Part shown: positions 9,260 through 45,225 of the stretch, in pieces | How positions within the stretch are numbered: position 1 is the first letter of the stretch | How the letters are laid out: every line of letters starts with the position of its first letter | Source of the DNA: Candidatus Omnitrophota bacterium | GTDB taxonomy: Bacteria > Omnitrophota > Gorgyraeia > Gygaellales > Profunditerraquicolaceae | Assembly: GCA_041649115.1 (NCBI GenBank) | Contig: JBAZNT010000001.1 | Span: 76,325 to 140,324 of the forward strand | DNA length: 64,000 nucleotides | Reading direction: 5' to 3' | Notes under the pieces: generated by a model | Databases searched by the model: none | Seen by the model: the letters and a program-made list of their open reading frames with translations, nothing else | What the model was told of the DNA's origin: nothing | Made by a program: the position numbers and the translations under genes

Positions 9260-10990
9260 GTGAAAGTCCGCATCTTTGCTCTATTGTTTATTTTTCTTGC
9301 CGGCGGTTTAGCAACAGCCCGGGCCGGGGAATTCAACATCCTTTATACCGGCGGTACCCACGCGATGCTATACCCCTGTAATTGTCCTGTTGAGCCCGAC
9401 GGCGGAGTTGCGCGGCGCGCAACCCTCATAAGAGAGCTCAGAAAGAAAAACCCCAATACCCTGGTTTTGGATTCCGGAGATTTCTTCGCCGGCGGACTGC
9501 AGGACGAATATACGCAGAATAGCGAACTTGATATGCGTCGCAGCGCCATTGAGCTGGAGGCCATGGGGATAATGGGTTATGATGCAGCAGGGGTATCCAG
9601 CGAAGAGTTTAATTTCACAAGGGATTTTCTAGAGAAGAGCATCAAGGAGGCAAGGTTTCCTTTTCTCTCGGCTAATATTAAATCCCCGCTCTTTCATCCG
9701 TATATCGTCAAGGAAATAGGCGGCGTGAAATTCGGGATCACCTCTGTTATTACTCCTTTTGCCGCAGCCAAGACCGGGGGATTAGAGTTGCCAGACCCCC
9801 GGGATTCCTTAAGAAAAGTCCTTGGCCGAATGAAGAAGGAAGGCGTTGATATAGTTGTATTATTGAGCCGGTTAGACCAAAAGGAAGACATAAACTTAAT
9901 AAAGGGCCTGGGTGGCGTTGACATTATTATTAACAGTTATAGCAGCAAGAATGACGACATCTTTACTAAGAGCGGCACTACCCTGATTGTAAAGACCTCC
10001 TGGCAGGGAAGGCATTTAGGGAGGTTGATGCTGGATATAGACGCCGACAAGAAAATCGTCAATTATAAGGCAGAGTTCATCAGGCTTTCGGATGAGATTG
10101 CTGATGACCCGGCGATAACTGCGATCCTGCCGCAGTGTTTTTCCGACTCCAATTGCAGAAAAGGAGCAGCGAGGGGGTCTTGTAATAACCCGGCCATGCC
10201 GAATGCGCGATGCGCATTTGCCAAGGCATCCAGGGTCAGCTTATTGGTCATAACTTCAAAGGAATGCACTGTCTGCGATGCGCAGAAAACGATAGATTAT
10301 TTAAAGAATGAATTCCCAGGCCTTAGCGTATCCTATCTCTACCACGGCAGCCGGAAGGCGGATAGGTTGATTGCCGATTTCGGTATCAAGGGTCTGCCGG
10401 CTTATCTGCTGGAGAAAGAGGTAGAAAAGGACCCCAATTTCAGCAAGCTTGCGGATAAGTCCGTTTTAAAGGGGGATTACTACCTTTTGGAGCCCAGATT
10501 CAGCGGTCTGGCCTATTTCTTAGACCGCAGGAGACAAAAGGGCAACATAGATGTCTTTCTTAGTCTTTACGACGCAAGCGCCGTCGGCATCCTGGAAAAT
10601 GTCAGGCAGTATCAACCGGCGCTGCACTTTCTGGTTACCGAGCAAGGGGGAGATTTTAGCGCCCTCAAAGGAAAGCCCGAGGTAGAGGAGTGCCTGCGCA
10701 GCGTCTGCGTCCGGAAATATTACCCCAGGCGATACTGGGATTACCTTAGCTGCCGTGCCGCTAACATCAGCAGCAGCTGGTGGCAGGAATGCGCTTCCGG
10801 CATCGACGCATCCAGGATTGCCGAGTGCGCCAGGGGGCAAGAAGGGAAGGCGCTTTTAAGAGACAATATACGGATGAACAAGGAATTGGAGATTATGTTC
10901 GGACCGCTGTACCTGGTAGATAATAATGAGATTTTTGGAATCCGCGGGGTGCCCAGCAAAGAAGAATTCCGCAGGATTTTCAAAAAATAA
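9260..10990 (+). CDS. Exported multidomain protein: degenerate 5'-nucleotidase/metallophosphoesterase-like N-domain, Cys-rich linker, CxxC thioredoxin-like module and a degenerate DsbA-like module
   Basis: 576 aa with a GTG start and a signal peptide (MKVRIFALLFIFLAGGLATARA). GGVARRAT and DSGDFFAGG resemble 5'-nucleotidase motifs, but the DxH and GNHE positions are altered (YTGGTH, SSEEFN). A C-x5-C-x8-C-x9-C linker follows. ITSKECTVCD plus GLPAYLL indicates a thioredoxin fold. Confidence 0.55.
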   Translation: MKVRIFALLFIFLAGGLATARAGEFNILYTGGTHAMLYPCNCPVEPDGGVARRATLIRELRKKNPNTLVLDSGDFFAGGLQDEYTQNSELDMRRSAIELEAMGIMGYDAAGVSSEEFNFTRDFLEKSIKEARFPFLSANIKSPLFHPYIVKEIGGVKFGITSVITPFAAAKTGGLELPDPRDSLRKVLGRMKKEGVDIVVLLSRLDQKEDINLIKGLGGVDIIINSYSSKNDDIFTKSGTTLIVKTSWQGRHLGRLMLDIDADKKIVNYKAEFIRLSDEIADDPAITAILPQCFSDSNCRKGAARGSCNNPAMPNARCAFAKASRVSLLVITSKECTVCDAQKTIDYLKNEFPGLSVSYLYHGSRKADRLIADFGIKGLPAYLLEKEVEKDPNFSKLADKSVLKGDYYLLEPRFSGLAYFLDRRRQKGNIDVFLSLYDASAVGILENVRQYQPALHFLVTEQGGDFSALKGKPEVEECLRSVCVRKYYPRRYWDYLSCRAANISSSWWQECASGIDASRIAECARGQEGKALLRDNIRMNKELEIMFGPLYLVDNNEIFGIRGVPSKEEFRRIFKK

Positions 10991-35183: not shown

Positions 35184-35792
35184 GTGCTTTATTACGAAAA
35201 CAAGCTCCGCAGGGAGGGTTACGATTTTATCATCGGGATAGATGAGGTGGGCAGGGGCTGCCTTGCCGGTCCGGTAGTGGCAGCGGCAGTACTTCTTAAG
35301 GAAACGAGATTCCGCAGCCGCATTGATGATTCCAAGAGATTGACCCCTCTTCAGCGTGAGGCGGCATTTCCGGAGATTGTGGATAAATCCGCGTTCGGCG
35401 TAGGTATCGTAAGCGAGAAGGCGATCGACCGCCTGAATATAGCGGTGGCGACCGGCATTGCAATGGAGAAGGCCGTTTCCATGCTTCTCAAGGGGCTCGG
35501 GCCGTGCAATGAAAAACGTATCTGCCTGATGGTCGACGGCACCGTAAAATTAAAGACGCACCTGCCGTACATCAATATTATCAGGGGAGACTCGAAGTCA
35601 AAAAGTATCGCCTGCGCGTCTATCCTTGCCAAGGTTACCCGCGATAGTATCATGTCTTCTTACGATGTTGTATATCCGCAGTACGGTTTCTGGAAGCATA
35701 AGGGTTACCCTACCCGCTTGCACCGGGTGGCAGTGGAGAGGTTCGGGTTATCCCGGATACACCGGGTGAGTTTCTGCCATGCCGCGAAGTAA
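35184..35792 (+). CDS. rnhB: Ribonuclease HII
   Basis: GIDEVGRGCLAGPVVAAAV and DSKRLTP; GTG start. Confidence 0.93.
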   Translation: MLYYENKLRREGYDFIIGIDEVGRGCLAGPVVAAAVLLKETRFRSRIDDSKRLTPLQREAAFPEIVDKSAFGVGIVSEKAIDRLNIAVATGIAMEKAVSMLLKGLGPCNEKRICLMVDGTVKLKTHLPYINIIRGDSKSKSIACASILAKVTRDSIMSSYDVVYPQYGFWKHKGYPTRLHRVAVERFGLSRIHRVSFCHAAK

Positions 35793-36156
35793 TTTGTCGC
35801 TAGGCAAGAGCGCCGAAGATGAAGCCGTAGATTTTCTCAGCCGCCAGGGATGCCGTATCATCAGGAGGAATTATCGCAACAGGGCAGGCGAGATAGATAT
35901 CATTGCCCGGGATAAGGGCACGGTTTGTTTTGTGGAGGTAAAGAGCAGGCGTTCGTTAAGATACGGGCTGCCGCAGGAGGCGGTTTCCTTGCGTAAGCGC
36001 GAAAGGATAGCGCGGGTAGCCCTGGGTTTTTTAAAGGAAAATAATCTCCTGGATTCCCCGGCGAGGTTCGACGTAGTAACGGTCTTGTGCTTGGGCCGGG
36101 CAAGAGAGATAAAATTAATCCGGGGGGCATTCGAATCGGAGGGAGGGGTTGCCTGA
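35779..36156 (+). CDS. yraN: YraN-family endonuclease (UPF0102)
   Basis: 125 aa. GEIDIIARDKGTVCFVEVKSR, and the conserved rnhB-yraN neighbourhood. Confidence 0.85.
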   Translation: MPRSNLSLGKSAEDEAVDFLSRQGCRIIRRNYRNRAGEIDIIARDKGTVCFVEVKSRRSLRYGLPQEAVSLRKRERIARVALGFLKENNLLDSPARFDVVTVLCLGRAREIKLIRGAFESEGGVA

Positions 36157-36157
36157 T

Positions 36158-36724
36158 ATGGCAGATTACCGTAGCGCCACTTTAATGGAATATCTCGATG
36201 CGCTGGCAGCGAGGGCGTCCGTGCCCGGAGGGGGCTCTGCCGCGGCCCTGGATGCGGCCATGGGGGTTGCGCTTATCAGCATGGTGATTAATTTTACCAT
36301 CGGCAAGCCCCGTTACGCCAGATACGAAAAAGAATTAAAGAAGGCTCTGGAGAAGTCCGAGAAGTTGCGCGAGGAATTTCTGCAACTGGTGGACCTTGAT
36401 GCCGCGGCCTATAAGAGCAGGAGCCTGCGTGATGCGCTGGATGTGCCCTTCATGGTTTGCAGGCTTTGCCTGGAAGGGGCAAAGTTATTGCCCGGCCTTG
36501 TCAAAAATTCTAACCCTAACCTGATAAGCGACGTGGCAGTGGCGGCAGCGTTTCTGGAGTCTGCTTTCTCGGCCGCGTATTTTAACGTCCGGATAAATCT
36601 TAAATCCCTAAACGATAAAAAATTGGATTCCAGGATTAATAAGGAATTGCTTTCCAAGGAGAAGATTCTCAGGAGGATCAGATACCAGACGGAGGAGAAA
36701 GTTGGCAAGATTATTAGAGGGTAA
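36158..36724 (+). CDS. fchA: Cyclodeaminase/cyclohydrolase-family protein (FchA/FtcD C-terminal type; likely methenyl-THF cyclohydrolase)
   Basis: YLDALAARASVPGGGSAAALDAAMGVALISMV is the family signature. I prefer the ATG at 36158, which has better spacing from the GGAGGGAGGGG RBS than the TTG at 36149. Confidence 0.72.
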   Translation: MADYRSATLMEYLDALAARASVPGGGSAAALDAAMGVALISMVINFTIGKPRYARYEKELKKALEKSEKLREEFLQLVDLDAAAYKSRSLRDALDVPFMVCRLCLEGAKLLPGLVKNSNPNLISDVAVAAAFLESAFSAAYFNVRINLKSLNDKKLDSRINKELLSKEKILRRIRYQTEEKVGKIIRG

Positions 36725-37541
36725 GCCTGTCGCAGAGAGGATCAAGGCAGAGATTAAAAAGCAGGTTGGGTCGCTGGCTCGTGCGCCCGTGCTGCTTAGC
36801 GTCCAGGTAGGGGAGGATGCCGGTGCCGCGAGCTACGTAAAGTCCCAGCAGAGGGCTGCAGAGGGCCTCGGCATAGAATACCGTTTTCATAAATTGCCGC
36901 CGGAGATAACGGAAGGGGAGCTTCTGGAGTTTATCGGGCGCATGAATTCCGATAAGTCGCTGGACGGGATAATCGTGCAGATGCCGCTGCCGCCCCATAT
37001 CGATCGCAGTAAAATCAGCCAGGCCATCCTTCCCGAGAAAGACGTAGAGGGGATGCATCCCGAGAATATCGGTAGGATCCTTTTCGGTAAGGCGAGCATC
37101 CTTCCTTGCACTGCCGCGGCAGTAATGGAACTGTTGAAGGAGAGCGGGGTCGACCTTTATGGCAGAGAGGTAGTGGTGGTGGGCCACAGCGAGATTGTCG
37201 GCAAGCCCCTCTCGCTTTTGCTGCTTGATAAATTCGCCACTGTTACGGTCTGCCACATAGGCACCTCCAAGGCCGCAAAGCTACAGGAGCACGTCAGTGC
37301 TGCCGAGATATTAATCGTAGCAGTGGGCAGGGCCGGGCTTATTAAAGGAGAGTGGATTCGCGAAGGCGCCGTTGTCATAGATGTCGGCATAAATAAGGTA
37401 GGGGATAAGATTGTAGGCGACGTGGAATTTCAGGAGGCCCAGAGGCGCGCCGCGTTCATCACGCCTGTCCCCGGCGGGGTAGGGCCTTTAACCGTTACCC
37501 TCCTCATGCGCAACCTCCTTGAGGCAGTGAAGTCAAAATAG
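36702..37541 (+). CDS. folD: Bifunctional 5,10-methylene-THF dehydrogenase / 5,10-methenyl-THF cyclohydrolase
   Basis: YVKSQQRAAEGLGI, GIIVQMPLP, VVVGHSEIVGKPL and TPVPGGVGPLT; TTG start after a GGAGGAG RBS. Confidence 0.93.
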   Translation: MARLLEGKPVAERIKAEIKKQVGSLARAPVLLSVQVGEDAGAASYVKSQQRAAEGLGIEYRFHKLPPEITEGELLEFIGRMNSDKSLDGIIVQMPLPPHIDRSKISQAILPEKDVEGMHPENIGRILFGKASILPCTAAAVMELLKESGVDLYGREVVVVGHSEIVGKPLSLLLLDKFATVTVCHIGTSKAAKLQEHVSAAEILIVAVGRAGLIKGEWIREGAVVIDVGINKVGDKIVGDVEFQEAQRRAAFITPVPGGVGPLTVTLLMRNLLEAVKSK

Positions 37542-37542
37542 G

Positions 37543-37580
37543 ATAGAGACGTTTTTCTCCCCGTTCGGGAAAGTGTCTTC
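37543..37580 (+). repeat. Hairpin-repeat family copy (unit 1 of the folD-metF spacer)
   Basis: ATAGAGACGTTTTTCTCCCCGTTCGGGAAAGTGTCTTC. By position-by-position count it is 31/38 identical to 63537-63574. Confidence 0.75.
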
Positions 37581-37586
37581 AAGAGG

Positions 37587-37629
37587 CAGAAACGCTTTCC
37601 CGAACGGGTGGGAAACTGTTTCTGTTTTT
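37587..37629 (+). terminator. Repeat-derived intrinsic-terminator-like hairpin followed by T5
   Basis: CAGAAACGCTTTCCC (37587-37601) pairs with GGGAAACTGTTTCTG (37610-37624) at 14 of 15 positions, one of them G-U, with an 8-nt loop. TTTTT follows at 37625-37629. Confidence 0.6.
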
Positions 37630-37634
37630 GATCC

Positions 37635-37647
37635 GGAAAGCGTTTCT
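37635..37647 (+). repeat. Isolated 3'-arm copy that is the perfect reverse complement of 37588-37600
   Basis: GGAAAGCGTTTCT is the exact reverse complement of AGAAACGCTTTCC. It ends 7 nt before the metF ATG. Confidence 0.7.
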
Positions 37648-37654
37648 TTAAACT

Positions 37655-38527
37655 ATGGCCAGCTTTAAAGAGAAATTAGCATCGGAGAAGTTTCTGGTAA
37701 CTTCCGAGATCGGCCCTCCCAAGGGCATCGGGACAAAGACCCTCCTGGAGGACGCCGAGCTTATCCGCGGGAGGGTGGATGCCATTAATGTGACGGACCT
37801 GCAGAGCTCGGTGATGCGCCTGGGTTCCCTGGCAGTCTGCGCTCTTTTAAAACAGAGGGGATTTGAACCTTTATTCCAGCTAACCTGCCGTGACCGTAAC
37901 CGCCTTGCCTTGCAGTCCGATATACTTTCCGCTGCCGCCCTCGGCATTAAAAATCTCCTGATACTTACCGGTGACCATCCTAGCCTCGGAGACCATCCGG
38001 AGGCCAAGCCGGTGTTTGACCTGGATTCGGTGCAGCTTCTGGAGGCAGTCGGGAAGTTAGAGCAAGGCTTGGATATGAAAGGCAACAGGCTGGAGGGAGA
38101 AGCTCCGGAATTCTGCGTCGGAGCGGCGGTTAATCCCGGGGCAGACCCGTTAGAGCCCGAGATCCTAAAAATGGAAAAGAAGATTGACGCGGGGGCGGAG
38201 TTTTTCCAGACGCAGGCTGCCTACGATATAAAGATTTTTGAAAAATTCCTTGATAAAACCCGGCACCTTAATGTCCCGGTGCTGGCAGGTATCGTGCTTT
38301 TAAAGTCCGCCGCCATGGCGCGCTACATGAACGAGAATGTAGCAGGTATATGCGTACCGGAAGACCTGATCAAACAGATGTATGAGGCCAAGGACAAGAC
38401 GGCAACCTCCATAGGGATTGCCAGCCGTCTGATTAAGGAATTCAAATCCATGTGCCGGGGGGTCCACATTATGCCTATCGGATGGGAAAAAAAAGTTCCC
38501 CTCGTCCTGGACGCCTCAGGTTTATAG
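37655..38527 (+). CDS. metF: Methylenetetrahydrofolate reductase (acetogen/MetF type)
   Basis: 290 aa. FLVTSEIGPPKG, INVTDLQSSVMR, CRDRNRLALQSD and TGDHP. Confidence 0.85.
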   Translation: MASFKEKLASEKFLVTSEIGPPKGIGTKTLLEDAELIRGRVDAINVTDLQSSVMRLGSLAVCALLKQRGFEPLFQLTCRDRNRLALQSDILSAAALGIKNLLILTGDHPSLGDHPEAKPVFDLDSVQLLEAVGKLEQGLDMKGNRLEGEAPEFCVGAAVNPGADPLEPEILKMEKKIDAGAEFFQTQAAYDIKIFEKFLDKTRHLNVPVLAGIVLLKSAAMARYMNENVAGICVPEDLIKQMYEAKDKTATSIGIASRLIKEFKSMCRGVHIMPIGWEKKVPLVLDASGL

Positions 38528-38529
38528 AT

Positions 38530-39447
38530 ATGGCTGAGATTGTGATAGTCGGCAATTCTGCCGCAGGATTTTCATGTTGCCAGGCGCTACTTGCAGAGCG
38601 CGGCAACAACGGGATAACCGTTATCAGCGAAGAGGGTTTTCCTGCCTACAACCGTAACCTCCTTATCGGTTATTTTAGCGGAGGCATAAAGGAAGAAGAA
38701 CTCTTTCTCTGTCGCCAGGACTATTACCAGGCTAACGATGTAAGACTGCTTAAAGAGGGCAGGGTGGTTTTGCTCGAGGCCAGAAAACAGCGGCTCATCC
38801 TCAAGGATAATTCCAGGATAAATTATGATTATCTGGTGATTGCCTCAGGCTCAAGGCCGCGCCTCCCCGATATACCGGGGATCACCAAGGAGGGGGTTGA
38901 GGTTTTTTATTCGCTGGGAGATGTCAGGAGCATTAAGCAACGCCTGATCATCTCCGATACGGTAGCATTGTTCGGAGGGTCCATGCTTTGCGCTGAACTT
39001 TCCGTTTCGGAGTCCCTCAAGGGTAAGGAAGTCAAGATTATTGCCAGGGGCAGGCCCGGGGCGTTTAGCGCCAGCGAGACCCGGGAATGGCTGGAAGGGG
39101 TCGAGGTTGCCGAGGTTATCGGCGAAGGCTCTGAATTGCGGGCGATAAAATTAAGCAACGGTAAGGCAATCGGCGTATCTTTGCTGATCTATGCCGGGCC
39201 GCAACTTGCGGCAAGCGAATTCTTGAAAGGCAGCGATGTCAGCACCGACAATGGTTCTATCCTGGTAGATGGGCAGATGCGCACGAACCTCCGGAATGTT
39301 TTTGCATGCGGCAGCGTTTCTAAAAAAGACAATTACGCCCCGCAATCCAAAACCTGGGATGATTCCGTAAAAGAAGGCATCCTGGCAGCCGAGAGCTTAT
39401 TAAGAATCCTTAAAGGAGAAAGCAATATATGTCAACAGACGTCTTAG
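38530..39447 (+). CDS. Truncated, divergent FAD-dependent pyridine-nucleotide-disulfide-oxidoreductase-family protein (NirB/rubredoxin-reductase-like N-terminal two domains)
   Basis: The ATG at 38530 gives MAEIVIVGNSAAGFSCCQALL, followed by YNRNLL and YDYLVIASGSRPRLPDIPG. The second dinucleotide motif is degenerate (FGGSMLCAEL) and the usual GD motif reads ACGSVS. At about 305 aa it has no dimerisation domain. It overlaps acsB by 19 nt. Confidence 0.65.
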   Translation: MAEIVIVGNSAAGFSCCQALLAERGNNGITVISEEGFPAYNRNLLIGYFSGGIKEEELFLCRQDYYQANDVRLLKEGRVVLLEARKQRLILKDNSRINYDYLVIASGSRPRLPDIPGITKEGVEVFYSLGDVRSIKQRLIISDTVALFGGSMLCAELSVSESLKGKEVKIIARGRPGAFSASETREWLEGVEVAEVIGEGSELRAIKLSNGKAIGVSLLIYAGPQLAASEFLKGSDVSTDNGSILVDGQMRTNLRNVFACGSVSKKDNYAPQSKTWDDSVKEGILAAESLLRILKGESNICQQTS

Positions 39448-41615
39448 TCGAACTTGGCAGCAAGGGGGCAGGCAGCATCATTAAAGCCGCGGGTTCTGCC
39501 CTGGATAAAGCAGCTAAAGAGAAAGGGGAATCCTGCGCTATCGGTTTCGGGGGCACCAATTATTATTTGCCGTTGGCATACGCCCTCTTAAGTATTGAGG
39601 CCAGAAGTCTCGGGGACTGCCGGAATATCCTCAGGGAAGCCGAAGCCCTCAATAATAACCACTCAGCTTCCAGCGGTCTTAATATTACCTGCCTCGGAGG
39701 CATATTGAATAAAGGCGTTGCCGCCTTGCTCTGCGAGGAGGTGCTGGCTGCGCTGGCCTATCTTGATAAAGAGCACCCCGGGGAGGGTTCCGCAGGTTTC
39801 CTGCCGGATACCCTGTTAAGGTCGCTGGGCATCCAGTTGGTTGACGGCAGGATTGCCGGTATCGCGGTAATACTGGGGCCTGCTAAGGATGCGGATGGAG
39901 CGGTGCGCATCGTCAGGGATTTCCAGAGCAAAGGCATCGTAAGCATTCTCGTCGGCAACACAGGCGCAAACAGTTTTAAGAAACAACTGGAAGACAAAAA
40001 GGTAGAGATGGGGCTGGAAAATTATATCGTTGCGTTAGGTGACGATTACCTTTCCGCCATCTATGCCGTTAACTGGGCTGTGCGCGCCCCGCTCGTGTAC
40101 GGAGGCCTGAAGAGCGGGCAGTGGCAGGAAATTTTAAAATACAGCCAGGAGAAAATCCCGGCCTTTGTGATGCTGCTTACTCACGTGGATGAGGTATTGG
40201 TGGCTACAGGCCTCGGGGCATTGGCAATGGGGTTTCCCATTATCTCCGACTTGGATATCCCCCAGCTTGGCAAGATAGACACTACTTTATATGAAGCTGT
40301 TGTTAGCGAAAAGGATTACGGCAGGCTGCCTGCCAGGTGCATTGAGACAAGAGGGCTGAAGGTAAGGGTTGCCGAGGTTCCCATACCCGTGCCTTACGCC
40401 CCGGCATTCGAAGGGGAGCGCGTAAGAAAGGAACAGCTGCATGCGGAGTTCGGCAGCAAGAGCACCGTTGCCTTCGAATACCTGACCTTGAAGGGGATGG
40501 ATGAGGTCGAAGACGCCAGGGTAGAATTGAAAGGGCCGGATATCGACCAATTGCCGAAAGGCATGAAATCCCTGCCGTTGGCGATAATCGTAGAAGTAGC
40601 CGGCCGCAGGATGCAGAAAGATTTTGAGCCTATCCTGGAACGCCAGATACACCGCTTTATGAATTATGCCATGGGCGTGATGCACGTCGGCCAGCGCGAC
40701 ATGAACTGGATACGCGTTTCGCGCGATACGTTTGAGAAGGGATTCCGCCTCAAGCATTTCGGAGTCATAATCCATTCCATGCTGCACCAGGAATACAGCG
40801 CTATCGTGGAGAAGGTACAGGTAAAACTTTATACCCGGGAGGAAGACGTCAAGCTGCTCCTGCCGCAGGCCAAGAGGGCCTACGAGGAGCGCGATGAACG
40901 CATTGCCGGCATGGTGGATGAGAGCGTAGATACATTTTACTCCTGCCTGCTCTGCCAATCCTTTGCCCCGAACCACGTCTGCATTATTACTCCGGAGCGC
41001 CTGGGGCTATGCGGTGCTTATTCCTGGCTGGATGCCAAGGCTTCTTTTGAGATTGTTCCCACCGGTCCGAACCAGCCCATTAAAAAGGGGGAGGTCTCAG
41101 ACGGCAACCTGGGGCAATGGAAGAATATAAACGATTTTGTTTATAATAAATCCAATAAGACCATCCAGAAGGTTAATATGTATTCCCTGATTGATTCTCC
41201 TCAGTCTTCCTGCGGTTGTTTTGAGTGTATTGCGGCGATTGTCCCGGAGGTAAACGGTATAATGGTGGTGCACCGTGATTATACCGGCCTGACGCCGGTA
41301 GGCATGAGTTTTACCACCCTGGCGGGTTCGGTAGGCGGGGGGGTGCAGACCCCGGGTTTTCTGGGGATAGGCAAATTATATATTGTCAGCCGTAAATTTA
41401 TCTCTGCTGACGGAGGATTAAAGAGGCTGGTATGGATGCCGCGGGAACTAAAAGAGATATTGGCGGATAAGCTTAAGAAGCGCGCCGAGGAACTTAAAGA
41501 ACCGGACCTTCTTGACAAGATTGCGGATGAAACTACCGCCGGCACTGTTGCAGAGTTGATTGATTTTTTGCAAAAAGTCAAACACCCTGTACTTGGTATG
41601 CCCGCCCTCCTATAG
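39429..41615 (+). CDS. acsB: Acetyl-CoA synthase catalytic subunit (bacterial AcsB; A-cluster protein of CODH/ACS)
   Basis: 728 aa. FYSCLLCQSFAPNHVCIITPERLGLCGAYSWLDAKASFEI and the A-cluster Cys-Gly-Cys motif SSCGCFECIAAIVPE are present. It is collinear with my recollection of Moorella AcsB, which is about 729 aa. Confidence 0.93.
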   Translation: MSTDVLVELGSKGAGSIIKAAGSALDKAAKEKGESCAIGFGGTNYYLPLAYALLSIEARSLGDCRNILREAEALNNNHSASSGLNITCLGGILNKGVAALLCEEVLAALAYLDKEHPGEGSAGFLPDTLLRSLGIQLVDGRIAGIAVILGPAKDADGAVRIVRDFQSKGIVSILVGNTGANSFKKQLEDKKVEMGLENYIVALGDDYLSAIYAVNWAVRAPLVYGGLKSGQWQEILKYSQEKIPAFVMLLTHVDEVLVATGLGALAMGFPIISDLDIPQLGKIDTTLYEAVVSEKDYGRLPARCIETRGLKVRVAEVPIPVPYAPAFEGERVRKEQLHAEFGSKSTVAFEYLTLKGMDEVEDARVELKGPDIDQLPKGMKSLPLAIIVEVAGRRMQKDFEPILERQIHRFMNYAMGVMHVGQRDMNWIRVSRDTFEKGFRLKHFGVIIHSMLHQEYSAIVEKVQVKLYTREEDVKLLLPQAKRAYEERDERIAGMVDESVDTFYSCLLCQSFAPNHVCIITPERLGLCGAYSWLDAKASFEIVPTGPNQPIKKGEVSDGNLGQWKNINDFVYNKSNKTIQKVNMYSLIDSPQSSCGCFECIAAIVPEVNGIMVVHRDYTGLTPVGMSFTTLAGSVGGGVQTPGFLGIGKLYIVSRKFISADGGLKRLVWMPRELKEILADKLKKRAEELKEPDLLDKIADETTAGTVAELIDFLQKVKHPVLGMPALL

Positions 41616-41617
41616 CA

Positions 41618-41637
41618 GGAGCCATTTCTAGGTTGGC
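41618..41637 (+). repeat. GGAGCCATTTCT-AGGTTGGC element upstream of the TPR gene
   Basis: GAGCCATTTCT is the reverse complement of the 11-mer AGAAATGGCTC at 42657-42667. The adjacent 8-mer AGGTTGGC recurs directly at 42673-42680. Confidence 0.5.
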
Positions 41638-41640
41638 TTG

Positions 41641-41675
41641 AAGGGCGTTTCTGTTTTGGGATGGGAAACGTTTAT
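41641..41675 (+). repeat. Degenerate relative of the hairpin-repeat family, possibly a weak acsB terminator
   Basis: AAGGGCGTTTCTG-TTTT-GGGATGGGAAACGTTT contains 3'-arm-like GCGTTTCTG followed by TTTT and a GAAACG complement. The similarity to the family is only partial. Confidence 0.35.
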
Positions 41676-41689
41676 ATTTTAAATTTTTC

Positions 41690-41718
41690 TTGACCTTTTT
41701 TGGCTTTTCTTATATAGT
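41690..41718 (+). promoter_or_regulatory. Sigma-70-like promoter for the TPR gene
   Basis: TTGACC (41690-41695), a 17-nt spacer, then TATAGT (41713-41718), 20 nt upstream of the ATG at 41738. Confidence 0.5.
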
Positions 41719-41737
41719 AGAAACGATAAAGGCGATA

Positions 41738-42610
41738 ATGTCAAAATATCCTCCTAAACCTTTCCCCTTTTATAGCATTATAATAGGAGCGTTGTTTTTG
41801 TTTTTAACGGCGAATTCTGGCGCTGCTCAGGAAGAGAAACTCTCTTTAATACAGAACGAGGCCAGGCTTTACCGCGAGTTGGGATTGGAGTCTCAGAATA
41901 AAGGCGAGCTTCAGGAGGCCCTGGTGTATTACGAAAAGGCCATTGTAATGGATCCTCAATACCCGTTGACCTATAATGATGCCGGTGTTGTCCTGGAAGG
42001 GATGGAGCGCCCGGATTTAGCAAAGACAATGTACCTTAAGGCTATCGAGGTAGCGCCGAATTACCCCGACAGCTATTCAAATCTGGCAATCATTTACGAA
42101 AATGAAGGTAATTACGCCGATGCCGTAACCTGCTGGATGAAACGGGCTACGCTAGGCCCTCCTAACGACCCTTGGGCAGAGGCTGCCCGCCGCAGGATAG
42201 GGGACATCGCCAAGGCGTACCCCCAGGCCTACGGCCTAAGCAGCCAGCAATACCAGCAGGGGGAGCGCAGGCTCAGCGCTGAAGCGGAGGAAATCCCGTT
42301 TTCCTATGAGGCAGAGGCGCCGTCTTCCCAATCGGCGTTGACTTATCTAAAACCGCAATATCCTTTGCCCGAACAGCCGGCGGTAGCATACCAGGATTTT
42401 CCTGCTTCCCAGGGCGTTGCCAGGGCAGGCGGCTCCAGCGGTGGAAATAAAACCCGCGCTTCCAATTACCTTATGCAGGCCAGGGAGAATTTCGATGCAG
42501 GTAGCTATGTAGTAGCTTTGAAAGAAGCAACGGTCGCGGAGTATCTGGACCCCGAAAATTCCGAAATCAGTTCTTTTGTGGAAGAGATCCGTAAAAAACT
42601 TTTAAATTAG
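41738..42610 (+). CDS. Secreted or membrane-anchored tetratricopeptide-repeat protein
   Basis: It has an N-terminal hydrophobic segment (FYSIIIGALFLFLTANSGAAQ) and at least three TPR units (EALVYYEKAIVMDPQYP.., MYLKAIEVAPNYP.., ADAVTCWMKRA). I moved the start from the track's TTG at 41690, which is the -35 hexamer, to ATG 41738. Confidence 0.78.
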   Translation: MSKYPPKPFPFYSIIIGALFLFLTANSGAAQEEKLSLIQNEARLYRELGLESQNKGELQEALVYYEKAIVMDPQYPLTYNDAGVVLEGMERPDLAKTMYLKAIEVAPNYPDSYSNLAIIYENEGNYADAVTCWMKRATLGPPNDPWAEAARRRIGDIAKAYPQAYGLSSQQYQQGERRLSAEAEEIPFSYEAEAPSSQSALTYLKPQYPLPEQPAVAYQDFPASQGVARAGGSSGGNKTRASNYLMQARENFDAGSYVVALKEATVAEYLDPENSEISSFVEEIRKKLLN

Positions 42611-42656
42611 TTACTGCGCTATATCACGCCTCATTTTCCCGTGTTTAATTAATCGT

Positions 42657-42680
42657 AGAAATGGCTCTCCCGAGGTTGGC
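42657..42680 (+). repeat. AGAAATGGCTC-TCCCG-AGGTTGGC element downstream of the TPR gene
   Basis: This is the partner of 41618-41637: the 11-mer is inverted and the 8-mer is direct. Confidence 0.5.
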
Positions 42681-42684
42681 CTAA

Positions 42685-45225
42685 ATGGCTAAAGAAAGAT
42701 TATTTTTACTTGATGCTACAGCTTTTTGCTATCGCGCCTTCTACGCTATCGGAGGCCTGTCTACCTCATCGGGTCAGCCTACCAACGCGGTTTACGGTTT
42801 CGCCAATATGCTTAAGAAGATTATTAAAGATAGGCACCCTGATTTTATCGCTGCTTGTTTTGACGTATCCCGCGATACGTTTCGCCAGAAGAAATTTGCC
42901 GCTTATAAGATACATCGTCCCCCGATGCCTGAAGGCCTATCTTCCCAGATGCCGTTTATCAGGCAGCTGGTGAGCGGTTACGGCATAGCGGTTTTTGAAA
43001 AAGAGGGTTACGAGGCAGACGACATCATTGCGACTATCGCTGCCAGGGCGAAGGAGGAGGGGCTGAAGGTAACCGTCGTTAGCTCCGATAAGGACATACT
43101 GCAGTTGGTGGATGAGGATACCGAGGTATTTAATCCCTACAAGGATAACGGTATTACCTACGATGCAGAGAAGGTCAGGGGGGCTTTTGGGGTAAGCCCT
43201 TCCCAGATCCCGGATCTCATTGCCTTAATGGGAGACGAGGCGGATAACATCCCTGGCATCAGTGGCGTAGGAGAGAAGACTGCGAAGGCACTTATTAAAG
43301 AATTCGGTTCTCTTGAGTCCGTGCTGGCGCACGCCAACCGTATCATCCCCAAGAAGGTTTCAGGCGCCATTGAGGCTAATATGCGTACCGCCACTCTTAA
43401 TAAGGAATTGGCTGTTTTGGATAGCAGGGTGAAGTTGGATTTTAGCCTTGATATGCTGCGCCCCGGACCCCTAGATACCGAGGGGCTCCTGGACTTATTT
43501 AAAAAGCTGGAGTTTAAGAAGTTCAGCAGGGAGCTTCAGGTAGAAGCAGGGGATTCAGTTGCGAAGGAGCTGCCGGTTGGAGGCGATAGCGACCTGGAGC
43601 AGATTATCAGCAGGCGCCTTGAGGTTATTTTAGGATTTAGCGAAGACGCGGGAATATTTTTATCTGCCGCAGGCAGGGGCTTCCGCCTGGCTGCCATTAC
43701 TGCGAAGGCAAGGGAGATGCTTTCGCGCAGCGATATCCCCAAGACCGGTCACGACCTTAAAAGGATTAAGGTAATGCTGCAGAAGAATGGGGTAATCCTC
43801 GCAGGGCTGTATTTTGACACCATGATCGCGGCTTATCTTATTAATCCCGGTAAGGGTTCCTATGCGCTGGAGGATCTCTCCTGGGACTATCTGTCTCAAA
43901 CTCCCTTGAGCAGGGGTATCGATAATGCCGGCGCCCTGACGGCAATCGCTGACCTTAAACCTCTCTTGGAAGCCGAGCTTAAGAAAAGGTCCCTCCTGGA
44001 GCTTTTCCGCAGCATTGAGATGCCGTTGGTGGAGGTGCTGGCGGAAATGGAGACAACGGGGATAAAATTGAACACGATGATCCTGGAGGACCTTTCCAAA
44101 GAACTGGAGAGGAGGCTTATCATCCTAATCCAGGATATATATAAGCTAAGCGGCGCGGAATTCAATATCAATTCCCCAAAACAATTGCGGACCATCATTT
44201 TTGAAAAGCTTGGGCTGCCGGTGGTAAAGAGGACCAAAACCGGCCCTTCTACCGATGAGGAGGTATTAAAGGCCCTGGCCTCTTCTCACGAGCTTCCGGC
44301 GCTGCTTTTAGAATACCGCCAACTTACCAAGTTAAAGAATACCTATGTCGATACCCTGCCCGCCCTGGTTGACCCGAAAACCGGCAGGATTCATACCTCA
44401 TTTAATCAGACCGGTACCGAGACCGGCAGGTTAAGCAGCAGCAACCCTAACCTGCAGAATATACCTACCAGGACCGATATCGGCAGCAGGATCAGGCAGG
44501 CGATCGTGGCCTTTGATTCCGAGAGCTATCTTTTGGCGTGCGACTATTCGCAAATCGAATTAAGAATACTGGCGCACATATCCGGCGACGAGAACCTGAT
44601 CTCGGAATTCAGGCAGGATAAAGACGTGCACCGGGCTACCGCCGCGCTCATCTACGGCCTAGGCGAAACCGAGGTTAGCGACCAGATGCGCGATACCGCC
44701 AAGAGGGTTAATTTCGGTATCATCTACGGCCTGACCTCATATGGTCTTTCTCGCGACCTCTCTATATCATTTGATGAGGCGCAGGATTTTATCGATACCT
44801 ATCTAGCCAAATACCCCCGGGTTAAAGATTATATGCGGGAGCAGATTTCCAGGGCAGAGGATGACGGATTTGTTACCACTATCAGCGGCAGGAGGAGGTA
44901 TATACCGGAAATTAAGGATAAGAATCAGGCAGTACGCCAGTTTGCACAGCGCAAGGCCATCAATACCCCCATCCAGGGCTCGGCAAGCGATTTGATAAAG
45001 GCGGCCATGATTGCGATAGAGCGGAACATAAATGGAAAGGGGATGGCCAGCCGCATGATAATGCAGGTCCACGATGAATTGGTTTTTAACGTACCCCGCC
45101 GGGAGTTTGATGCCGCTATGGGGTTAATCCGGAGCGCGATGGAGCACGTCATAGAGTTAAGCGTCCCGGTAAAGGTTACTGTTAAAAAAGGAGATAATTG
45201 GCTGGATATGGTATCTGTCAACTAA
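42685..45225 (+). CDS. polA: DNA polymerase I (5' nuclease plus polymerase; the 3'-5' exonuclease motifs appear degenerate)
   Basis: 846 aa. The 5'-nuclease region is LLDATAFCYRAFYA..GYEADD. Polymerase motifs are DYSQIELRILAH, RRxAKxxNFGIIYG and QVHDEL. Confidence 0.95.
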   Translation: MAKERLFLLDATAFCYRAFYAIGGLSTSSGQPTNAVYGFANMLKKIIKDRHPDFIAACFDVSRDTFRQKKFAAYKIHRPPMPEGLSSQMPFIRQLVSGYGIAVFEKEGYEADDIIATIAARAKEEGLKVTVVSSDKDILQLVDEDTEVFNPYKDNGITYDAEKVRGAFGVSPSQIPDLIALMGDEADNIPGISGVGEKTAKALIKEFGSLESVLAHANRIIPKKVSGAIEANMRTATLNKELAVLDSRVKLDFSLDMLRPGPLDTEGLLDLFKKLEFKKFSRELQVEAGDSVAKELPVGGDSDLEQIISRRLEVILGFSEDAGIFLSAAGRGFRLAAITAKAREMLSRSDIPKTGHDLKRIKVMLQKNGVILAGLYFDTMIAAYLINPGKGSYALEDLSWDYLSQTPLSRGIDNAGALTAIADLKPLLEAELKKRSLLELFRSIEMPLVEVLAEMETTGIKLNTMILEDLSKELERRLIILIQDIYKLSGAEFNINSPKQLRTIIFEKLGLPVVKRTKTGPSTDEEVLKALASSHELPALLLEYRQLTKLKNTYVDTLPALVDPKTGRIHTSFNQTGTETGRLSSSNPNLQNIPTRTDIGSRIRQAIVAFDSESYLLACDYSQIELRILAHISGDENLISEFRQDKDVHRATAALIYGLGETEVSDQMRDTAKRVNFGIIYGLTSYGLSRDLSISFDEAQDFIDTYLAKYPRVKDYMREQISRAEDDGFVTTISGRRRYIPEIKDKNQAVRQFAQRKAINTPIQGSASDLIKAAMIAIERNINGKGMASRMIMQVHDELVFNVPRREFDAAMGLIRSAMEHVIELSVPVKVTVKKGDNWLDMVSVN

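Follow-up and report, generated by a model that had tools for sequence, protein, structure and literature searches.

Between metF, which encodes methylene-tetrahydrofolate (THF) reductase, and acsB, which encodes acetyl-CoA synthase (ACS), a 64,000-nucleotide stretch of DNA from a Candidatus Omnitrophota bacterium (contig JBAZNT010000001.1, hereafter the window) carries an open reading frame (ORF) for a 305-aa protein that we call X. X is a real, conserved Omnitrophota gene under purifying selection, and comparison of related gene clusters gives good support to the view that it fills the slot upstream of acsB that belongs to an oxidoreductase of the FNOR family, in clusters without cooS and cooF. 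Taken as a whole, our reading is that X would be an FAD-retaining accessory subunit, without an NAD(P)H site, of an ACS that is free of carbon monoxide dehydrogenase (CODH). We would give this reading an even chance; what it says of family and evolution stands on much firmer ground than the mechanism that we infer.

Many Omnitrophota, like Dehalococcoides, have an ACS without CODH, and the questions that such an enzyme poses are how it is kept in the reduced state, what the source or the fate of its CO is, and what takes the place of the CODH contact. X appears exactly as cooS and cooF disappear, sometimes fused to AcsB, and alongside a rebuilt CODH-binding domain. It offers experimenters a concrete candidate subunit, together with natural fusion proteins, and a flavoprotein of the FNOR family emerges as a regular part of the Wood-Ljungdahl cluster in Omnitrophota and as tightly linked to acsB. 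An earlier note, made from the DNA sequence of the window, had not recognized X as a described component of acs clusters. This stands in part: X belongs to a known family, as a shortened FNOR member, and to a known kind of module, but we found no account in the literature searched of the short protein itself, of its fusions to AcsB or of the remodelled N-terminal domain (A1) of AcsB.

X is predicted to be a shortened flavoprotein without an NAD(P)H site

The features of X to which the text refers are as follows.

38530-39447, + strand: X ORF, ATG at 38530 and TAG at 39445-39447, 305 aa, Pfam Pyr_redox_2
38551-38568, + strand: FAD motif G8-N-S-A-A-G13, among the best-conserved positions of the family
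38632-38634, + strand: codon of acidic residue E35, which follows the FAD motif and is kept in the family
38968-38988, + strand: LFGGSML, residues 147-153, the degenerate second (NAD(P)H) glycine motif; family consensus G-E-x-x-x-C
39304-39318, + strand: ACGSV, residues 259-263, which replaces the A-x-G-D FAD ribityl motif

The earlier note had placed X in the FAD-binding fold shared by NirB, rubredoxin reductase and ferredoxin reductase, and both profile and structural comparisons agree. The sole Pfam match of X is Pyr_redox_2 (PF07992), which aligns over positions 2-291 of 291 and so covers both Rossmann domains (E 1.2e-29; 104.2 bits against a curated cut-off of 26.1). The best NCBIfam matches are to PadH (E 3e-29) and to the NirB N-terminal region, far below their cut-offs; for the equivalogs NirB, NorW, HcaD and PadH, X scores 61-102 bits where 378-578 are required (102 against 475 for PadH). 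The nearest solved sequences are NADH:rubredoxin oxidoreductases (NRORs), namely 3klj (E 4e-34) and 1xhc (E 6e-32). An AlphaFold2 (AF2) model from an alignment of 35 relatives reached a predicted local distance difference test score (pLDDT) of 93 and a predicted template-modelling score (pTM) of 0.89, with residues 299-305 at pLDDT below 50. In a Foldseek comparison the model paired with ferredoxin, rubredoxin, putidaredoxin and toluene-dioxygenase reductases, with AorC and with CoA-disulfide reductases, at TM-scores of 0.80-0.85 when normalized to X and about 0.6 when normalized to the target, the latter being low because the targets have a C-terminal domain that X lacks.

These relatives help to define what X would be unable to do. 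NRORs (3klj, 1xhc), putidaredoxin reductase (1q1r) and TodA (3ef6) are its best sequence and fold matches (E 4e-34, TM 0.8), sharing the FAD and second Rossmann domains. NRORs and ferredoxin reductases, however, are NAD(P)H-binding enzymes whose C-terminal domain contributes to holding the iron-sulfur partner, and X has neither the NAD(P)H site nor this domain. PadH of phenylglyoxylate dehydrogenase, the best NCBIfam match, and AorC (8c0z_E) of tungsten aldehyde oxidoreductase, one of the best matches by fold, are subunits of multi-subunit oxidoreductases according to their NCBIfam and PDB names; unlike X, both are full length and use NAD+.

A motif census of 103 short relatives of X shows that the unusual features of X are traits of a family. 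The FAD motif G-x-S/A-x-x-G is kept, with both glycines in nearly all of the proteins and the form GNSAAG in 68 of them, and an acidic residue is found at position 35 almost everywhere. The second dinucleotide motif, described in the earlier note as degenerate, survives as GxGxx[GAS] in 3 of the 103 and is lost from 100; the aspartate of the GD motif, whose replacement had likewise been noted, survives in 4 and is lost from 99, with ACGSV in 60. The C-terminal interface domain, also reported missing, is absent from every short relative: X stops at residue 305, where full-length relatives run to about 420 aa, and Pfam finds no Rubredoxin_C or Reductase_C domain in it. One supposed peculiarity did not survive the comparison, since the first motif, GNSAAG, also occurs in full-length relatives whose NAD and GD motifs are intact. 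The best-conserved positions in the family alignment are G8, N9, S10, A12, G13, E35, A105, G107 and G261, and because those of the FAD motif are among them we infer that X still binds FAD. The sequence of X contains no cysteine clusters or Fe-S cysteine motifs. Description of X as a shortened Pyr_redox_2 flavoprotein, probably without an NAD(P)H site or a partner-binding domain, is well supported by sequence comparison.

Two other ideas about the protein were rejected. The tail CQQTS might have been taken for a functional C-terminal cysteine, but it is the start region of acsB read in another frame, is absent from fused and non-overlapping relatives, and is disordered in the model. A role like that of CoA-disulfide reductases, which are among the fold matches, is contradicted by the lack of an active-site cysteine near residue 42.

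Relatives of about 300 aa form 59 clusters at 90% identity in a word-indexed search, at 37-95% identity, and the named ones are Omnitrophota FAD-dependent oxidoreductases except for P0022 (Patescibacteria group) and P0029 (hypothetical protein). In all, there are about 100 short relatives, essentially all from Omnitrophota. The ratio of nonsynonymous to synonymous substitution rates (dN/dS) is 0.12-0.18 for X, 0.06-0.10 for metF and 0.05-0.09 for acsB, and X is 40-50% identical among loci whose neighbouring genes are 70-80% identical.

The losses raise the possibility that X is a redox-dead remnant, a pseudoenzyme that is kept for structural reasons or as the carrier of the ribosome-binding site and start of acsB, both the Shine-Dalgarno sequence and the ATG of which lie inside the X gene. 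The near-universal decay of the NAD and GD motifs, the missing C-terminal domain, the low identity relative to neighbours and a dN/dS about twice that of MetF and AcsB would all fit such a remnant, as would the persistence of a sister clade, typified by P0146, in which all three motifs are degenerate. Yet conservation is greatest at the FAD-binding positions, which would not be expected without a bound cofactor, the dN/dS of X over its whole length is far from neutral, and at one locus that has no acsB (L008, below) X is intact. We therefore regard a remnant as unlikely. As for the P0146 type itself, L111 (5941-7206) and L112 (6001-7266) have the order rnhB-yraN-fchA-folD-[421-aa family member]-TPR-polA, where TPR denotes a tetratricopeptide-repeat protein gene; P0146, with its FAD, NAD and GD motifs all degenerate, belongs to a large and diverse clade and looks, from its sequence, like a persistent pseudoenzyme.

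X probably takes the slot of a full-length oxidoreductase in clusters without cooS and cooF

We assembled 26 X loci, 20 from a scan of species-representative genomes and 6 from later look-ups. X follows metF in all 26 and in the window, with a gap of 1-5 nt in most, and precedes acsB in nearly all. The linkage to metF and acsB suggested earlier was therefore borne out by this survey, in which homologs are not scattered.

In an exhaustive profile search the short family merged gradually into proteins of about 420 aa that also carry the GNSAAG motif. In these full-length relatives (about 421 aa) the NAD motif (GAGIAG or GGGLVG) and the GD motif are intact and a C-terminal domain (PF18267) is present, and X is 28-30% identical to them across its full length. 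A metagenome scan with full-length queries returned 80 loci, most of which have the order (fhs)-fchA-folD-metF-cooS-cooF-[full-length protein]-acsB or a contig-truncated piece of it; the overlap between the full-length gene and acsB is 8 nt in most of these loci. The combination cooS-cooF-FNOR is a recognized module, in which the FNOR is a prediction with no biochemistry reported (PMC6344411). The remaining architecture, in 5 of the 80 loci, is fchA-folD-[full-length protein]-metHact(-metH) or folD with the full-length gene only.

X and cooS-cooF, with or without the full-length flavoprotein, are nearly mutually exclusive: cooS occurs in one of the 26 X loci, and the 64-kb window contains no cooS, cooF or fhs. 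X shares with the CODH-associated FNOR (COG1251) its protein family, the GNSAAG motif and the slot upstream of acsB. It differs in being about 115 aa shorter, in lacking the C-terminal domain, the NAD(P)H motif and the GD aspartate, in having no adjoining cooS or cooF, and in belonging to a separate clade in a rough tree. The comparison supports well the proposal that X fills the FNOR's slot in clusters that lack cooS and cooF, and the X-type clusters agree with the partial pathway without AcsA and CooS/F that has been described for many Velamenicoccia and Gorgyraia of the Omnitrophota (PMC10066038).

The sole locus with both forms is L018 (7986-15389), with the order metF-X-cooS-(91 aa)-cooF-[full-length protein, 421 aa]-acsB. 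Its X has a near-intact GAGPFV motif, and the N-terminal domain of its AcsB belongs to the CODH type, being 80% identical to that of L041. L018 may be an intermediate or a re-acquisition.

A different arrangement is seen in L024 (7001-11417) and also in L025, L027, L096 and L097, where fchA and folD are followed by a full-length family member with an intact NAD motif, a protein of about 208 aa and MetH (805 aa), and where the cluster has no methylene-THF reductase (MTHFR) gene. The 208-aa protein carries an RFSAGYGD motif, read as that of a split MetH reactivation (S-adenosylmethionine) domain. The flavoprotein of these clusters could be a methionine-synthase reactivation reductase or a stand-in for MTHFR.

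A further explanation treats X as a housekeeping flavoprotein in its own right, of the NROR type, for example one of oxygen defence, that sits here by frozen gene order. Its best solved relatives are indeed NRORs, the whole region is syntenic whatever the genes do, and relatives persist without metF and acsB. We nevertheless give this explanation very little credence: X has neither the NAD(P)H motif nor the rubredoxin-binding C-terminal domain of such enzymes, it is nearly exclusive with cooS, cooF and the full-length protein, in 22 of 27 cases its gene either overlaps acsB or is joined to it as a fusion, and AcsB shows a type-specific change in its N-terminal domain.

Fusions, domain remodelling and co-variation point to AcsB

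The features on the acsB side are as follows.

39429-41615, + strand: acsB, acetyl-CoA synthase, 728 aa, NCBIfam NF040764 (963 bits)
39429-40373, + strand: AcsB N-terminal domain A1, about residues 1-315, of the remodelled, CODH-less type
39429-39447, + strand: 19-nt overlap of X and acsB; the acsB start region also encodes the X tail CQQTS*, and xxA TGT supplies the acsB ATG
39413-39418, + strand: acsB Shine-Dalgarno sequence AAGGAG, read from the sequence, inside the 3' end of X and 10 nt before the ATG at 39429

Physical coupling of the two genes is not peculiar to the window. X and AcsB are joined in frame, as single proteins of 1024-1029 aa, in L006, L007, L009, L011, L016 and L026 (P0094), that of L016 being cut by a contig end, and an overlap of 13-20 nt is found in 16 other cases. 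When the protein database was searched with the X-AcsB junction, at least two fused fragments, P0224 and P0222, were among the matches listed. In P0141 (563 aa), a hydrophobic segment links a family member to a TPR region whose homologue is encoded at window positions 41690-42610, so fusions with downstream neighbours besides AcsB also occur.

AcsB itself differs between cluster types, and the difference is confined to the N-terminal domain, the site of CODH contact in canonical enzymes. A1 is 65% identical to that of the window in X-type loci and 46% in CODH-type loci, whereas A2 (73 against 74%) and A3 (75 against 76.5%) differ little between the two types and are about 73-77% identical to those of CODH-type clusters. 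FchA and FolD are about equally similar to their window counterparts in both types. Among CODH-type loci A1 is the most conserved AcsB domain (87.6%). Against solved CODH-bound ACS, A1 of the X type scores 113 and 110 bits and that of the CODH type 180 and 162 bits. X-type A1 is under strong purifying selection (dN/dS 0.05-0.09).

Co-variation was assessed by a crude method, partial correlation of distances after removal of FchA and FolD distances, with Mantel permutation. The residual distances of X correlate with those of A1 (r 0.42, p about 0.002), weakly with those of A2/A3 (0.28), and not significantly with those of MetF (r 0.22, p about 0.13).

At two loci the relation between X and acsB is altered. 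L008 (7129-9965) has metF and X followed by the TPR gene and polA, with no acsB at the locus, and its X (P0027) keeps all family motifs. In L015 (8910-10163), X lies 12 nt upstream of an acsB of 417 aa that comprises A2 and A3 only; with its N-terminal domain absent, this AcsB resembles archaeal CdhC.

MetF as an alternative partner

The gene upstream of X suggests another partner. metF (37655-38527, + strand) encodes a 290-aa methylene-THF reductase (Pfam MTHFR, E 8.6e-36) without a metV partner gene. X might serve as its electron-transfer partner, in place of MetV, RnfC2 or HdrABC, so that a protein donor could reduce the MetF flavin through X. The neighbourhood fits this: metF always lies immediately upstream of X, mostly within a few nucleotides, and X still adjoins metF where acsB has been lost (L008) or displaced (L018). 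The earlier note had found no metV, hdr or rnfC2 at the locus, and indeed no metV, hdr or rnfC was found in the window or the related loci. MetFV-type enzymes depend on an additional module and are able to use ferredoxin (PMC8515935).

The comparative results, however, do not favour MetF. Its identity to the window protein is 76% in CODH-type and 78.5% in X-type loci, with no type-specific change, and in CODH-type clusters cooS directly follows metF. A homolog search returned at least 120 MetF relatives, 77-94% identical and all of Omnitrophota type among the matches listed; this MetF type is thus far commoner than X, and most of these proteins must work without it. The residual co-variation of X with MetF is not significant, and the fusions are all with AcsB, or in one relative with the TPR protein, and none with MetF.

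Nor does X resemble the redox proteins known from such loci. MetV, RnfC2, HdrABC-MvhD and the clostridial lpdA product are, like X, encoded between metF and acs genes (PMC8515935), but X has no homology to MetV (MTHFR_C, NGPCGG, Fe-S cysteines), RnfC or HdrA. Lacking an NAD(P)H site, it could not be an NAD(P)H-input module in the manner of RnfC2 or HdrA, and it has no Fe-S cysteine motifs. LpdA, which has a redox disulfide and a dimerization domain that distinguish it from X, is encoded next to metFV in Clostridium ljungdahlii and was tested there, with the result that it does not feed MTHFR (PMC8515935). A flavoprotein gene adjoining metF is therefore no proof of coupling.

The comparative signal suggests AcsB rather than MetF as the partner of X, and we consider the MetF explanation improbable. 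Of the earlier proposal that X is a redox partner or scaffold for MetF or ACS, the ACS part is favoured by the fusions, the change in A1 and the co-variation, and the part concerning a donor to MetF is weakly supported. For the wider question of how MetF receives its electrons, the result is mostly cautionary, in that adjacency is conserved while the signal points to AcsB.

A candidate subunit of a CODH-free acetyl-CoA synthase

How, then, might X contribute to AcsB function? In the accessory-subunit reading, X would be a shortened derivative or a paralogue of an NROR-like FNOR, encoded just upstream of acsB. In clusters of the window's type, cooS and cooF are absent, the flavoprotein has lost its NAD(P)H motif, GD aspartate and C-terminal domain, and A1 of AcsB is remodelled. 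X would still hold FAD and would dock on the N-terminal domain of the CODH-free ACS. Oxidation of NAD(P)H by X itself would not be possible. X could act in either of two ways. First, it could let a protein donor such as ferredoxin feed electrons in, for example so that the Ni-Fe-S A-cluster stays reduced. Second, X could be mainly structural, replacing the lost CODH contact.

ACS needs low-potential reductive activation. PadH and AorC, both FAD subunits, dock on complexes of Fe-S enzymes, and they provide a precedent for the arrangement proposed here for X and AcsB.

A more ambitious form of the same idea would make X the working flavin subunit of an undescribed CODH-independent ACS, docked on or fused to A1, fed by ferredoxin or a similar donor, keeping the A-cluster reduced and possibly feeding MetF as well; in ultra-small Omnitrophota, MetF, X and AcsB would then make up one compact unit that combines the methyl branch with the synthase. 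We hold this extended form to be doubtful.

Dehalococcoides, with its incomplete Wood-Ljungdahl pathway, likewise has AcsB without CODH, read as using free CO or as running in the cleavage direction (PMC7005905; PMC10066038). The part of PMC7005905 that was read mentions no flavoprotein partner or fusion for it, and X-type clusters differ further in having metF.

Several observations weigh against an accessory role for X in ACS. The fusions could come from one-base slips in overlapping genes, and the loss of CODH could by itself explain the remodelling of A1, with X uninvolved. X remains whole next to metF at L008, which has no acsB, at L015, whose acsB is truncated, and at L018, where cooS-cooF-[full-length protein] stands between X and acsB; the relatives in L111 and L112 persist although metF, cooS, cooF and acsB are all lost, and others persist in the MetH clusters of L024 and similar loci. 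Without the GD aspartate, FAD may be bound less strongly. X forms a separate clade in a rough neighbour-joining tree and is not nested within the cooS-linked full-length clade, so that X may have arisen either by decay in place or as an older paralogue, with L018 as the key case. An AF2 model of the natural fusion P0094 (1024 aa), made from a mixed and shallow alignment, reached a pTM of 0.47, with low confidence over A2/A3 of AcsB and the C-terminus of X, and has no bearing on the interface. Finally, gene order is kept well beyond the C1 genes, as tgt-trmD-rplS-rnhB-yraN ... TPR-polA-glgA; since the order holds throughout the phylum for genes of unrelated function too (rnhB, TPR, polA, glgA), adjacency alone is weak evidence.

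Gene junctions and neighbouring genes in the window

The coordinates agree with the earlier description of an ORF of about 305 aa that begins 2 nt after metF and overlaps acsB by 19 nt: the metF stop is the TAG at 38525-38527, and the acsB ATG at 39429 lies within the 3' end of X. A longer form of X starting at GTG 38452 is possible, but ATG 38530 is favoured because all relatives start M-x-K-I-V-I-I-G. Programmed frameshifting from X into AcsB was considered for the window and rejected: a TAA at 39411-39413 stops the acsB frame, no slippery site is present, and acsB is preceded by a Shine-Dalgarno sequence of its own. A scan for promoters and terminators over 35700-42800 gave counts no higher than in shuffled sequence.

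The genes around X in the window form a housekeeping set, every one on the + strand, and those nearest to the cluster are as follows.

36149-36724, + strand: fchA, Pfam FTCD_C, upstream C1-THF cluster gene
36702-37541, + strand: folD, Pfam THF_DHG_CYH and THF_DHG_CYH_C, upstream C1-THF cluster gene
41690-42610, + strand: TPR protein gene, with an N-terminal hydrophobic segment

The upstream fchA-folD synteny is kept in all related loci. At the yraN-fchA junction (36156/36149) the window lacks fhs, the formate-THF ligase gene, which is found at this position in 14 of the 26 related loci. Farther away, a 576-aa ORF at 9260-10990 (+ strand) has no Pfam match at E 1e-5. Downstream of acsB lie the TPR protein gene, polA and glgA. 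In all cluster types the TPR gene stands directly 3' of acsB or, failing that, of the flavoprotein gene.

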